Positions 26,958 to 63,940 of a stretch of DNA of 64,000 nucleotides are shown here, in pieces. The DNA is taken from positions 236,964,001 to 237,028,000 of the forward strand of contig OZ024742.1 of the NCBI GenBank assembly GCA_964016885.1. The letters are read 5' to 3'. Source of the stretch: Eledone cirrhosa (lineage: Eukaryota). How positions within the stretch are numbered: position 1 is the first letter of the stretch; each line of letters starts with the position of its first letter. The notes under the pieces were generated by a model. The model made no database searches and had not been told where the DNA came from. It worked only from the letters and a program-made list of their open reading frames with translations. The position numbers and the translations under genes are program-made.

Positions 26958-27150
26958 AAAGAGTCAGGACCCCGACGGCTGAGCTCCGGCCGTTTCGACA
27001 GCTAGATCCGAATTTAGTTGGTGCTGTTCGGATCTCCGAAGCTCAGCGGTCCGGGTTCTGACTCTTTTCCTATTACCCACTCTACTACCCTAACTATCGA
27101 GTACTCTGGTGCGTTATGGTCACCTGGTTTCTTACCACACTTTTTTTCTT
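26958..27150 (+). mobile_element. Short fold-back cassette (family W) in (TA)n
   Basis: Imperfect inverted repeat 26958-27068 plus tail. Homologs at 34284-34346, 61590-61720 and 61733-61930. Confidence 0.65.
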
Positions 27151-27162
27151 ATATATATATAT

Positions 27163-28045
27163 ATGGTCTTTATTCTCTCTCGTTCACGATTTCACCGAAC
27201 TTATATTCATGGAAATTTGGGACTTGACTCCTTCTTCCTCACTTTTCGTTGCTTCACTATCTTTGTTTGTTTACACTCTCGTGTCTCCTTTATTTACGTG
27301 TCCCAACGACTTTTTTTAGCCGTTGCTCGCACCAACCGGAGGTATATGGTCTTTAAAGCGATGAAATACCATTGATGGTTGGAAGATCACTGATGAAGGA
27401 CTAATTTTATTCATATGTAACCCATTAGCAACCATGCAGCACGTTTATTCTCATATTTACACATATTTTTTCCCCCGCTGTGACCCGTCTATTTCGTTCT
27501 TACTGCTTCCTCTTTCTCTGTATCTTTACCCTCCCTAACAGTCACTCTCTCTGTTAACCTCTTCCTCACCCTTCACTCACTCACTCTCTGTTACTACCTC
27601 TCCTCATCCTCCTTCCCGTTTGACCTGTGCGTAATTCTTTTCTTTCGCACCCTTGGTCAGGCAGGTCGCTTTTTTTCTATCTCTCGTCTACGATTTCACA
27701 GAACTTACGTTCACCGAATTCACAGACTAGATCCCTTCTTCTTCCCGTTAGACCTGTACGGAATTCCTTCCTTGCTCACATTCCAACCAGGTTTGATGGT
27801 CTTTATTCTCTCTCGTTCACGATTTCACCGAACTTATATTCATGGAAATTTGGGACTTGACTCCTTCTTCCTCACTTTTCGTTGCTTCATCTTTGTTTGT
27901 TTACACTTTCGTGTCCCCTTTATTTACGTGTCCCAACGACTTTTTTTAGCCGTTGCTCGCACCAACCGGAGGTATATGGTCTTTAAAGCGATGAAATACC
28001 AATGATGATTGGAAGATCACTGATGAAGGACTAATTTTATTCATA
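27163..28045 (+). repeat. pLTR-like direct repeat (~250 bp at 27163-27415 and 27797-28045)
   Basis: Near-identical copies, both ending CTGATGAAGGACTAATTTTATTCATAT, with TA tracts outside. Confidence 0.75.
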
Positions 28046-28225
28046 TATATATATATATATATATATATATATATATATATATATATATATATATATATAT
28101 ATATATCACACTTTTTCCTTATATATATATATATATATATATATATATATATATATATATATATATATATATATATATATATATATATATATATAAGATC
28201 AAAAGATGGTTAAAGGAGTTCCATG

Positions 28226-28296
28226 TATTTTATTATGCGCATTTCAAAAACAAACATCATCATGCAATAATATTTGTGTTTTCATCAGATAAAACA
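28226..28296 (-). ncRNA. Type I hammerhead ribozyme (inverted copy)
   Basis: Reverse complement of 29656-29726. Confidence 0.8.
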
Positions 28297-60299: not shown

Positions 60300-61080
60300 A
60301 TGTTCTTTGAGTCTCAGTCATTGATGTTAGTTAATTGGAAAGTTTGTTGAAATGAATATCAAGCCACTACCTGCAGCCTCAGATATTCAGGACGTATCGG
60401 AGGGTTCTTGCTGTTCCCAGCAAGCATGCCTTTTGAAGCGTTCCAAAAAGCGTGGCGGGGCCAATTTTCTTTAACGATCCCTGGAAACTCCTTGAGATAG
60501 TATCTAGTGCGCCTATGACAATCGGGACCACTTTGACTTCATGGCAGTTCCAAATCCTTTTTACTTCCCACTTTAAGTCCTGGTATCGGTTAATTTTCTC
60601 TCTCTCCTTCTCTTGCACTCTCGTGTCGAATGGGCAGGCTACATCCACAATCAGGCACGATCTTTTTTCCTTATCCAAAACCACCAGGTCAGGTCTATTG
60701 TGTTCCAGTTTCTTGTCCGTCTGTATCCTAAAATCCCACAACACCTTCACCTGATCGTTTTCTATCACCGACTCTGGCTTATGCTCATACCACTTCTCAG
60801 AATGTGGTAAATTGTTTACTTTGCATAGGTGCCAGTGGATCACCCTGCCCATTACATCATGTCTCCAGCCCTTATAGTGAGTCTGGGCTAGGTGTTTACA
60901 CTCGGATACAATGTGAGCCACAGTCTCCGCTCTCTCTCTCCACAGATCCTGCACAGTGGGCTAGCCTCCTCCTTGTAAATATGGTGTTTCAACCACTTCG
61001 TTTTGAGGGCCTGCTCTTGCGCAGCCATTAGCATTCCTTCTGTAGCCTTTTTAAGGTCTCCTCTTTTCAACCAGTTCCAA
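60300..61080 (-). mobile_element. Tandem second copy of the same R4-like 3' fragment
   Basis: Highly similar to 59048-59820. Confidence 0.88.
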
Positions 61081-61732
61081 CAACAACAACAGCAGCAGCA
61101 ATGACAACACCAGTGGCAGCAGCAGCAGCAGTAGCGGCAACAATGGTAGCAGCAGTGGTAACAACAGCTTCAGGCGCAATGAAACCGACAGCAACACACA
61201 CACCCGGATATAACGTATGTGCAACCCAAGTTCTCAGGACACAGCACTCAAAAACAAGATGGTGTAGGACAGAGCAAATGAGGGACACAAAATAATAAAT
61301 TAGTCACTGAGGAGGTCAAACAATGTGTAACGAAAGAGCCTTGGTAATAAACAAATAAACAACCATCCGGTTATTAAAGCAACCCACTGGAAAATTGTAA
61401 TAAATGGAAGTGACAGCCAACAGGTGCATGTGTTTTGATTGACAGCCTGACCCTCCCAAAGTATAACAATATATATGTGTGTGTGTGTGTGTGTGTATAT
61501 ATATATATATATATATATATATGTGTGTGTGTGTGTATGTGTGTGTGTGTGTGTGTGTGTGTGTGTGTGTATATATATATATATATATAACGAATGAATT
61601 GTGGTAAGGAACCAGATGGACCATAACGCACCAGAGTAGTCAATACTTAGGGTAGTAGAGTGGGAAATAGGAAAAAGTATGACCCCGACGGCAGAGCTCA
61701 AGCCATTTCGACGGCTGTTTCTATATATATAT

Positions 61733-61930
61733 ATATGAAAGTATTCAGGACTCCGACGTCTGAGCTCCAGCCGTTTCGATAGCTAGATCCGGATCTAGCA
61801 GTCGAAACGGCCGGAGCTCAGCCGTCGGGGTCCTGAATACTTTCATATTACCCACTCTAGCACTCCAAGTATCGAGTGATCTGATGCGTTATGGTCCACC
61901 TGGTATCTTACCACACCGTCTTTATTATTT
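61733..61930 (+). mobile_element. Family W fold-back cassette (58-bp arms, no spacer) plus tail
   Basis: 61733-61790 is the imperfect reverse complement of 61791-61848. Confidence 0.75.
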
Positions 61931-62592
61931 ATATATATATACACACACACGCATACACACGCACGCACACACACGCACACACACACACACACACACACAC
62001 ACACACACACACACACACACACACACACACACACACACACACACACACACACACACACACACACATATATATATATATATAAGGAGTCTTAATTATGTTA
62101 ACCTTCTTGTTACTATTAATCTAATATTCCAAAAAGCTATCAAAGAAATTTGGTTGATGTCTTTGGTATAAATACATTCTTTATTAACTTCCATATTTGA
62201 TCAGATCAGAAATACAATAATCACGTCTTAAAGCTATCAAAGAACAATTCAGTGAAGTCTTTGGTATAAGTATGTTCTTTATTGGCTTCCATATTTGATG
62301 AGACAAGAAATATAGTAATGACGCTTTATTGACATATCAATGAAACCGCCTGAATAGAATATTTCATATTCTATGAATAGAATATTTCATATTTCTTATA
62401 GTTTCAATAGCATCTCTTTGATCCCCATTGAACGACGTGTAGAAGTAAATTGAAATAAGTAGATTTCGTATTTTTATTGGTGATTCACTACGTGTGTGTA
62501 CATATATATATATACATACAGATATGAATATATGTATATATATATATATATATATATATACATACATATAAGTATATATATATATATATATA

Positions 62593-63940
62593 TATTGTTA
62601 TACTTGGGGAGGGTCATATTTGTGTAATAATATTGCCAGAATTAATAACAGAACACACTCACTGTTTGGTTGGTTTTCGCTTCTGTGTCTTTTATATCGG
62701 TTAATTTAGTTTATTCGGGCCTCGATGTTACCATTGGCTGACCAACGGTAAAAAATACAGATACAATATAGACACAGACACATATATATAGTTTAACCAA
62801 GTTCTTTCGTTGCACATCTGCAACATCGTCAGTGGTGCTATTAAGTTTCCTCCCGTTGTATTGTATGCCTACGCCATCTTTATTTAGTCTATTTATTTAT
62901 TTATTTATTTATGTGTTTGTCTTCTCTGCTCATGCGTTTGCGTGTGTGTATAGTGTTTTGTTTGATGTGTGTTCGTGTTTGGGTGACTGTGTATTGGTTA
63001 TTGTATTCTATCTTAGTTTACTAGTGTGTGTTTATATGTGTTTGTTGTTATTGTGCTTGTGTATTTATTTATTTATTTATTTATACTTCTCTTAGGTCAG
63101 TTTTGTTTGTTTGGGGAACAAAAAGGACGAAAAACGGTTCAGTACTATACGAACATGCCAGACAACAACACGACGGTAACATAGACAACATAGAAATTAG
63201 AATAATATCTAAACATAGAAATGACCCAGCAGATAGGCAAATCAGAGAGGCCAGCGAAATAGAACTTAGAAGGTCAAGGCTAAACAGAAAAAAATGAATG
63301 GAATAACAACAACACCCAAACAAACAACACTGACCTAAGAGAAGTATTAATAAAGAAATAAATACATACACAAGCACAATAACAACAAACACATATAAAC
63401 ACACACTAGTAAACTAAGATAGAATACAATAACCAATACACAGTCACCCAAACACGAACACACATCAAACAAAACACTATACACACACGCAAACGCATGC
63501 GCAGAGAAGACAAAAAAAATAAATAAATAAATAAACAGACTAAATAATGATGGCGTAGGCATACAATACAACGGGAGGAAACATATTAGCGCCACTGACG
63601 ATATTGCAGATGTGCAACGAAAGAACTTTGTTAGACTATATATATGTGTTTGTGTCTATATTGTATCTGTATTTTTTACCGTTGGTCAGTGAATGGTAAC
63701 ATTGAGGACCGAATAAATTAAATTAACCGATATAAAAGACACAGAAGCGAAAACCAACCAAACAGTGAGTGTGTTCTGTTATTAATTCTGGCAATATTAT
63801 TACACAAATATGACCCTCCCCAAGTATAACAATACGTCTCATTCTACATTTCCTCTTACATCTCTCTCTTCACCACCGGATTCTGTTACCCGGAGATTTA
63901 CCCATCTGCATTGTTGAGGCTTCCAAAAACACCAAATTTT
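62593..63940 (+). mobile_element. 5'-truncated Penelope-like element: inverted pLTR + GIY-YIG C-terminus + pLTR + tail
   Basis: Arms 62593-~63115 / ~63314-63834 enclose GSVLYEHARQQHDG..IRIISKHRNDPADRQIREASEI..LNRKK*. Confidence 0.88.
62796..62836 (-). ncRNA. Type I hammerhead fold (mirror copy 63591-63632 on +), each copy slightly degenerate
   Basis: ACCA-CTGACGA-T-GTTGCA-GATG-TGCAAC-GAAA-GAAC-T(T)-TGGT. Confidence 0.7.

Follow-up and report, generated by a model that had tools for sequence, protein, structure and literature searches.

Fold-Back Insertions in (TA)n Tracts of Eledone cirrhosa

How do insertions arise in which two copies of an element face each other head to head within (TA)n tracts, and why do their outer ends differ? 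The question is raised by a 64,000-nt stretch of the Eledone cirrhosa genome (GCA_964016885.1, OZ024742.1:236,964,001-237,028,000, forward strand; the window), in which fold-back insertions of Penelope-like elements recur. The assembly comprises 3.0 Gb and is (TA)n-rich. N denotes the upstream 3' end site in the element, T the tail end, and the tail is the segment from N to T. Families were named after examples in the window (F1, 31759; F2, 29760; F3, 48272; F4, 61848; F5, 63834; F6, 63829-63939; F7, 44735), and L numbers (e.g., L310) refer to loci fetched from the genome for comparison. Statements on published systems refer to the covered parts of the cited papers.

At four loci (F1 31759/31453, F2 29760/28192, F3 48272/48786 and F4 61848/61733), the arms match up to an alternating T/A tract of 3-5 bases, at which one arm enters (TA)n, while the other has 54-91 more unique bases followed by (TA)n. 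The junction rule is real and genome-wide; the anatomy is known, and the rule is sharper and testable. The head-to-head insertions, with one arm per fixed T/A tract, probably result from twin target-priming at two sites of one RNA. The first-pass annotation had listed five such junctions from four unrelated families. Four of these (31759, 29760, 48272, 61848) were borne out, whereas the presumed tail at 63834 belongs to F6. Accordingly, the junction was shown in F1-F4 and additionally in F7, while the fifth example, F5, is a relative of F3 (both families have a terminal segment in common) and its locus a two-family chimera.

Two Fixed, Internal 3' Ends

The expectation that inverted-arm endpoints pile up at an internal TA motif, instead of being distributed randomly, was confirmed by F3 28-mer counts and an F1 sample. 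The 28-mer just above site N of F3 had 24,867 exact genomic matches, which continued straight into (TA)n (11,494; 46%), into the tail (10,749; 43%) or into something else (2,624). In an unselected sample of 119 evenly spaced 10 kb stretches (1.19 Mb), six of 13 F1 ends were located at N, six at T and one 5 bases short of T. For F2, three of seven ends were found at N or 8 bases below it and three at T, the seventh being cut by the stretch edge. Moreover, among 30 F1 loci chosen by their tail, 12 featured an inverted partner whose outer end lay no more than 1.5 kb away, and each of these partners ended at N.

Scanning every fetched locus de novo yielded 194 events in 29 clusters, including 120 events with a tail ending in (TA)n; these clusters are partly non-independent, a few are not true families, and F1 was left out by the low-complexity filter. 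The modal match to the TA run at site N was at least 3 bases in 19 of the 29 clusters. For a random junction, the chance of such a match is approximately 11% according to hand arithmetic assuming A and T at 33% each and independent bases. N and T ends did not differ in (TA)n run length (medians 23 vs. 35 for F3, p=0.11; 25 vs. 28 for F1, p=0.23). Runs at element ends exceeded the sample median (13), in keeping with targeting and expansion alike; a telomerase-like addition of TA would be one possible contributor.

Furthermore, T is itself an internal site. In L310-L312, all of them F3 loci, the tail continues through a 4-base T/A tract into the open reading frame (ORF), the start codon of which is located in the pseudo-long terminal repeat (pLTR), a few codons above N. 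In L313, a 7-base T/A tract leads from the F1 tail into an ORF, 11 F7 copies continue through a 3-base tract into common sequence, and one copy of another family reads through past a 2-base match into an ORF (all tract and match lengths by eye). Since read-through copies exist in F1, F3 and F7, the tail is a segment between two internal sites, both matching the target. The distance from N to T is approximately 40-90 bases in each family tested, and both sites are located at short alternating T/A tracts. The earlier idea of a first copy begun at the RNA end and an inverted copy begun internally is therefore not supported, as the T end is itself internal at a T/A tract.

Tails of many unrelated families begin with a similar short motif 4-5 bases below N and contain its complement further on, as seen in the de novo clusters and in the window at 29762-29852 and 61849-61928. 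This suggests a common stem, which may set the start site.

Either/Or Pairing of the Ends

Pairing in F3 was evaluated for the first 100 tail-less and 96 tailed exact matches in the same, unselected 44 Mb of contig C1 (four rows beyond it were dropped), counting head-to-head neighbors at most 4.5 kb apart as a pair. In total, 94 of these 196 matches sit in head-to-head pairs. Among the 47 pairs, 42 are of the N/T type, three T/T and two N/N (p=1.2e-8 against 50% expected). In two of the three T/T cases, the element is long, its 5' pLTR is of the read-through type and its far end lacks the tail, the outer ends hence being N and T. Matches without an exact-match partner comprise 54 N and 48 T ends (54/102 tail-less).

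For F1, all 19 pairs among 30 core-selected loci are N/T, the other 11 loci being single (6 T, 5 N). Of 1,522 (TA)n-bounded segments, a set enriched for tail-selected loci, 121 have family matches at both ends (74 N/T, 1 N/N, 2 T/T, 44 unclassified), and whole-segment singles comprise 51 N, 77 T and 21 unclassified cases. Mixed-family pairs were not found among these 121 two-ended segments, based on a seven-family library with F3 and F5 pooled. The notion that only the mirror arm lacks the tail was not confirmed, given that the tail-less arm is the longer one in 18 F3 pairs and that 54 of 102 unpaired copies are tail-less.

Length, Likeness and Center of the Arms

The F3 arm set contains 56 pairs, 49 of them N/T and 47 of these simply mappable; 40 of its stretches were picked from the list of pairs, and L280 as well as L302/L303 seem to represent duplicated loci. 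In the 47 N/T pairs, the tailed arm is longer in 21 cases, the tail-less arm in 18 and the arms are equal in eight, the extreme being a tail-less arm of 2102 bases facing 91 bases of tailed arm. In L310 and L311, the long ORF-bearing copy is the tail-less one. Moreover, each of the two arms holds sequence absent from its partner in 18 of the 47 pairs. In F1 (38 of 39 pairs), arms of equal length prevail (21), the tailed arm being longer in 13 cases and the tail-less arm in four. The two F1 arms of a pair usually have a common 5' stop and are separated by 2-4 bases, and in 21 of 30 tail-selected F1 copies the start is located 202-214 bases above T. This fixed start suggests a short or 5'-proximal template, the end of which would have been reached by both cDNAs. 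The fixed F1 5' end, approximately 213 bases above T (window 31607; L001-L030, L240-L269), is located upstream of the hammerhead cut site and may represent a transcription start or reflect a non-autonomous mini-element.

Central junctions mostly overlap by at most 6 bases or carry up to 16 extra bases; in six of 47 F3 junctions, 10-29 bases fit both arms. Arms of one locus resemble each other more than arms of different loci, with identities of 97.8% within vs. 95.4% between loci for F3 (46 pairs, p=2e-6), 97.0% vs. 95.5% for F1 (36 pairs, p=8e-4) and 94.1% vs. 89.2% for F4 (22 pairs, p=5e-7). For F3 pairs with arms exceeding 250 bases, the own partner is the best match in 11 of 12 cases.

Palindromes in Independent Reads

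In order to evaluate whether the palindromes are real, short-read data were screened. Among contigs of run X6 matching the F1 palindrome (31456-31821), one crosses the center (31536-31631) and 26 pass from the tail arm into (TA)n at 31759, while at least 14 joints between the arms are located elsewhere; X6 possibly corresponds to the sample used for the assembly, and the reads derive from the whole family. In raw Illumina reads of runs X12 and X13 (other samples, another study), a strand-switching joint was detected with two start places, while run X10, bearing another organism label, provided only five short pieces. Thus, the center is crossed and strand-switching joints are seen, but no single read or contig spans the locus.

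The latter fact, together with the artefact-prone nature of palindromes adjoining long (TA)n tracts, is what could be put forward for a fold-back produced by sequencing or assembly. The ends, however, are fixed, family-specific and asymmetric in thousands of copies, the arms differ by point changes, and the same joint types recur in short-read contigs and in raw reads of other samples, so that the palindromes are almost certainly not such artefacts.

Identity as Penelope-Like Elements

A Penelope-like origin of the insertions is supported by reverse transcriptase (RT) and GIY-YIG domains, the pLTR layout and hammerhead motifs. In F1, Pfam matches were obtained for RVT_1 (E=1.1e-6) and GIY-YIG (E=1.1e-6) in L314 and for GIY-YIG in L020 (E=1.8e-7). 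The F3 matches, RVT_1 in a 919-aa frame of L311 (E=8.9e-4) and GIY-YIG in L097 (E=2.7e-4), are both under the Pfam cut-offs. F1 and F3 thereby possess the single ORF with RT and C-terminal GIY-YIG domains that characterizes endonuclease-positive (EN+) Penelope-like elements. Pseudo-LTRs in partial tandem, with the pLTR running into the ORF start, were likewise observed (F3 L310-L312, F1 L313), as were the inverted 5'-truncated copy and the one-sided tail. No linked ORF was found for F2 or F4.

A pattern-plus-stem scan predicted one sense type I hammerhead motif each in the F1, F2 and F3 arms (0/300 shuffles each) and none in the scanned F4, F5 and F7 stretches. No hammerhead is present among the Rfam matches listed for the window, nor in the three arms; the matches represent hairpin and microsatellite noise. 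F2 has a putative hammerhead motif without a linked ORF, and F4, for which neither was shown, is classed by its layout only. Upstream of GIY-YIG, the F1, F3 and F5 frames contain C-x4-C-x2-C (by eye), which conforms to the Neptune/Nematis Cys linker defined as CX2-5CxxC (PMC8557442). The Naiad/Chlamys type (N-terminal nuclease, no hammerhead) was excluded by the C-terminal nuclease and the hammerhead motifs.

A long open frame with RT and GIY-YIG motifs at 432 to approximately 1630 (- strand) of the window represents another Cys-linker Penelope-like family, and a 763-aa frame in L310 is near-identical to it. The F3 ORF (L311, L312) contains a long Thr/His/Asn-rich low-complexity stretch near its N-terminus, which recalls the Asn-rich inserts described in PMC3846280.

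Proposed Mechanism and Alternative Explanations

Two fixed ends, T/A tracts at both, their either/or use, symmetric arm lengths and variants shared between arms constitute the observed basis of the mechanism favored here. From these, we infer nicking of both strands, annealing, use of one RNA, strand displacement and end joining. The GIY-YIG nuclease would nick both (TA)n strands and, because (TA)n is self-complementary, each 3'-OH could pair with 2-7 A/U bases of the RNA. The sites may be set by this match or by folding of the RNA. Two RT subunits would begin at N and T, respectively, both copying toward the RNA 5' end, and the T-primed copy would displace the N-primed one. Both cDNA ends would then be joined head to head via 0-5 shared bases or a few extra bases, while priming by one strand only would leave a single copy with or without a tail. 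For a Penelope-like protein assayed in vitro, for which a dimer is predicted, nicking and extension have been demonstrated on both strands, with two internal starts bounding the tail (PMC11167929). Of the mechanism put forward in the first-pass annotation, fixed endpoints at an element-encoded T/A tract and two minus-sense copies from opposite target strands were supported, the latter by the 18 of 47 pairs in which each arm has private sequence. Its order of a first and a second copy was not, as the long ORF copy can be tail-less (L310, L311) and tail-less copies make up 54 of the unpaired ones vs. 48 tailed. A more specific version, to be held tentatively although it is a serious possibility, is a built-in symmetric twin-priming by a dimeric RT-nuclease with two A/U micro-templates that have co-evolved on one RNA and each serve one target strand, comparable to primer alignment by telomerase.

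Several points weigh against priming at two sites of one RNA. All evidence stems from finished insertions, no intermediate or empty site having been seen. The match at site N amounts to only 0-2 bases in ten of the 29 clusters, and the null for the microhomology stems from hand arithmetic. Five of 47 F3 pairs were not N/T at first count, and L274 (T/T) as well as L277 and L278 (N/N) stay exceptions. Likeness of the arms could also be explained by subsequent conversion between them or by two RNAs transcribed from a single source locus. Moreover, two cDNAs copying the same stretch require strand displacement, which is itself a proposal, and initiation without homology to the cut DNA was reported in vitro (PMC11167929).

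Strand displacement would not be needed if an asymmetric complex used one transcript at N and another at T, usually from the same source locus. Dual priming was proposed for L1 (PMC2837659), and some F4 and F1 pairs diverge between their arms more than average (ranks <0.4). Such use of two RNAs is nevertheless rather unlikely, considering that none of the 121 two-ended segments is mixed, that long F3 arms are closest to their own partner in 11 of 12 cases and that an extra rule against N/N and T/T would be required. Either/or pairing and arm identity would be explained directly if the cDNA primed at the tail end folded back and copied itself, the other target end capturing it where the first T/A tract occurs, with subsequent deletions at the center blurring the arm lengths. 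Palindrome centers are deletion-prone, and the 10-29 bases fitting both arms in six of 47 F3 junctions agree with this scenario. Self-priming on an antisense template has been proposed (PMC3846280). It is, however, distinctly improbable here: the tail-less arm exceeds its partner in length in 18 of 47 F3 pairs (2102 vs. 91 bases at most) and carries the ORF at L310 and L311, 54 of 102 unpaired copies lack the tail, the tail end is an internal T/A tract too, and F1 arms usually share their 5' stop, 2-4 bases apart.

Finally, the tail has been ascribed to EN-mediated resolution, and the nuclease favors T/A DNA (PMC8557442), in line with both ends being located at T/A tracts. Trimming or resolution of a longer intermediate at these tracts, without any priming there, is highly improbable, since RT starts map to both tail boundaries in vitro (PMC11167929) and trimming alone does not produce either/or pairing.

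Relation to Known Systems

The inverted pLTR without a tail had been regarded as known, and indeed the inverted layout and the one-sided tail are published, as are two internal start sites. In common with the canonical unit of EN+ Penelope-like elements are 5' truncation, the inverted 5' copy, the one-sided tail, a pLTR with ORF start and hammerhead, and (TA)n targeting, which is described for Cys-linker clades (PMC8557442, PMC3846280). Tails are longer here (approximately 40-90 bases vs. 30-40 described for EN+ elements). Moreover, the tail is optional in the covered EN+ literature, whereas its use is either/or within the pairs studied here and the main copy is just as frequently the tail-less arm. 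The Anolis Poseidon element studied in vitro (Frangieh et al. 2024, PMC11167929) likewise has two internal starts bounding the tail, nicking and extension of both strands and a predicted dimer. Its initiation is reported to lack homology to the cut DNA, in contrast to the short (TA)n match at both sites in E. cirrhosa, and inverted pairs are not addressed in the covered parts of that paper.

As in L1 twin or dual priming (PMC2837659), both target strands would prime minus-sense cDNA, with annealing at internal microhomology and a head-to-head join. L1 has a variable second site and pieces without overlap; here, the sites are fixed and close, the arms overlap, producing palindromes, and a poly(A) tail is absent. 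L1-type twin priming proper was therefore ruled out by the overlapping arms and the fixed site, the likeness being one of working only. Neither the either/or rule nor target microhomology at both sites was found in the literature search, Arkhipova 2006 and Evgen'ev and Arkhipova 2005 being works that may describe more; the covered parts of PMC9977147 and bioRxiv 10.64898/2026.07.22.740005 contain nothing on the junction rule.

The origin of inverted copies, tails and microsatellite preference in Penelope-like elements was named as open in PMC8557442. In the E. cirrhosa genome, young copies number in the tens of thousands and follow a rule that can be counted, namely one arm per site with both sites matching the target, from which precise expectations can be derived for the available in vitro system. 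Hairpin DNA, double-stranded RNA and difficulties in assembly probably arise from the thousands of near-perfect palindromes located between (TA)n tracts. If symmetric twin-priming is built in, the palindromes would be the programmed product of about half of the copies and no accident, and one rule would cover the inverted pLTR, the one-sided tail and microsatellite preference.

Organization of the Loci in the Window

The F1 pair, delimited by arm alignment and motif scan, is bounded by (TA)n at 31362-31455 (tail-less end) and 31822-31899 (tailed end). Its tail-less arm (31453-31606, - strand) ends at N and contains a putative hammerhead at approximately 31533-31562. The tailed arm (31607-31821, + strand; 215 bases) has a corresponding motif at approximately 31650-31679, N at 31756-31759 and the tail at 31760-31821, ending at T. 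Directly after the (TA)n tract, the final bases of the F1 tail recur as a single reverse copy (31900-31920); elements accumulate in one another's TA runs at this position and likewise in L270, L290 and L295. Furthermore, an unpaired tail-less F1 copy with a (TA)n tract on either side is located at 29873-30015 (- strand).

In the F2 pair, the tail-less arm (28192-28556, - strand) adjoins (TA)n at 28120-28195, and the tailed arm (29392-29852, + strand) has a putative hammerhead at approximately 29664-29718 and a tail at approximately 29762-29852, followed by (TA)n. The spacer between them (28557-29391) contains partial tandem copies and is assigned to neither arm. The F3 arms are identical at 251 of 251 aligned bases: the tailed arm (48218-48530, - strand) includes the tail at 48218-48271 and a hammerhead candidate at approximately 48436-48470, and the tail-less arm (48531-48786, + strand) has such a candidate at approximately 48588-48622 and is followed by (TA)n at 48783-48820. 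For F4, a tail-less arm (61733-61790, - strand) faces a tailed arm (61791-61928, + strand; tail 61849-61928). An additional unpaired tailed F4 copy (61590-61721, - strand) has the (TA)n tract 61722-61735 in common with this pair, and a second head-to-head F4 pair occupies 26959-27149 (tail-less, approximately 26959-27017, - strand; tailed, approximately 27040-27149, + strand). The same layout was observed for F7 at 44174-44778, with a tail-less arm at 44174-44360 (- strand) and a tailed arm at 44567-44778 (+ strand).

The F5 locus consists of a tail-less arm (62593-63115, - strand) and a sense arm (63116-63834, + strand), which contains the C-terminal end of a GIY-YIG-type ORF (approximately 63118-63290) and ends at N without its own tail. 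It is followed by the 5'-truncated F6 piece (63829-63939, + strand) that had been taken for a tail; this piece stops before the F6 tail and runs into (TA)n at 63940-63973. The bases after 63834 match approximately 110 bases near the 3' end of F6, a high-copy family, and all 29 other fetched loci match the corresponding query only from query positions 60-64 onward. The true F5 tail, present in seven other fetched copies, differs in sequence from 63835-63939. Based on the F6 match and the different tail in other F5 copies, neither arm at this locus has its own tail, and the locus appears to be a tail-less F5 pair to which an F6 piece was joined at N by later insertion or template switch. A palindrome in L162 (2582-2850) contains an F5 end, a TA run and a pair of tail-less F4 arms in mirrored form and is tail-less on both sides, possibly reflecting a later inverted duplication at the DNA level.

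Two interleaved inverted repeats (45314-45491/45842-46018 and 45717-45847/46021-46151) form a more complex tandem-inverted insertion at 45314-46151, flanked by (TA)n tracts. Two direct copies of 1.9 kb (6725-8600 and 48783-50643) are 85% alike, with (TA)n at both bounds of each. Finally, a tRNA-like match at 43961-44032 (+ strand; 40.3 bits, over the Rfam gathering score) possibly represents the head of a short interspersed nuclear element (SINE).

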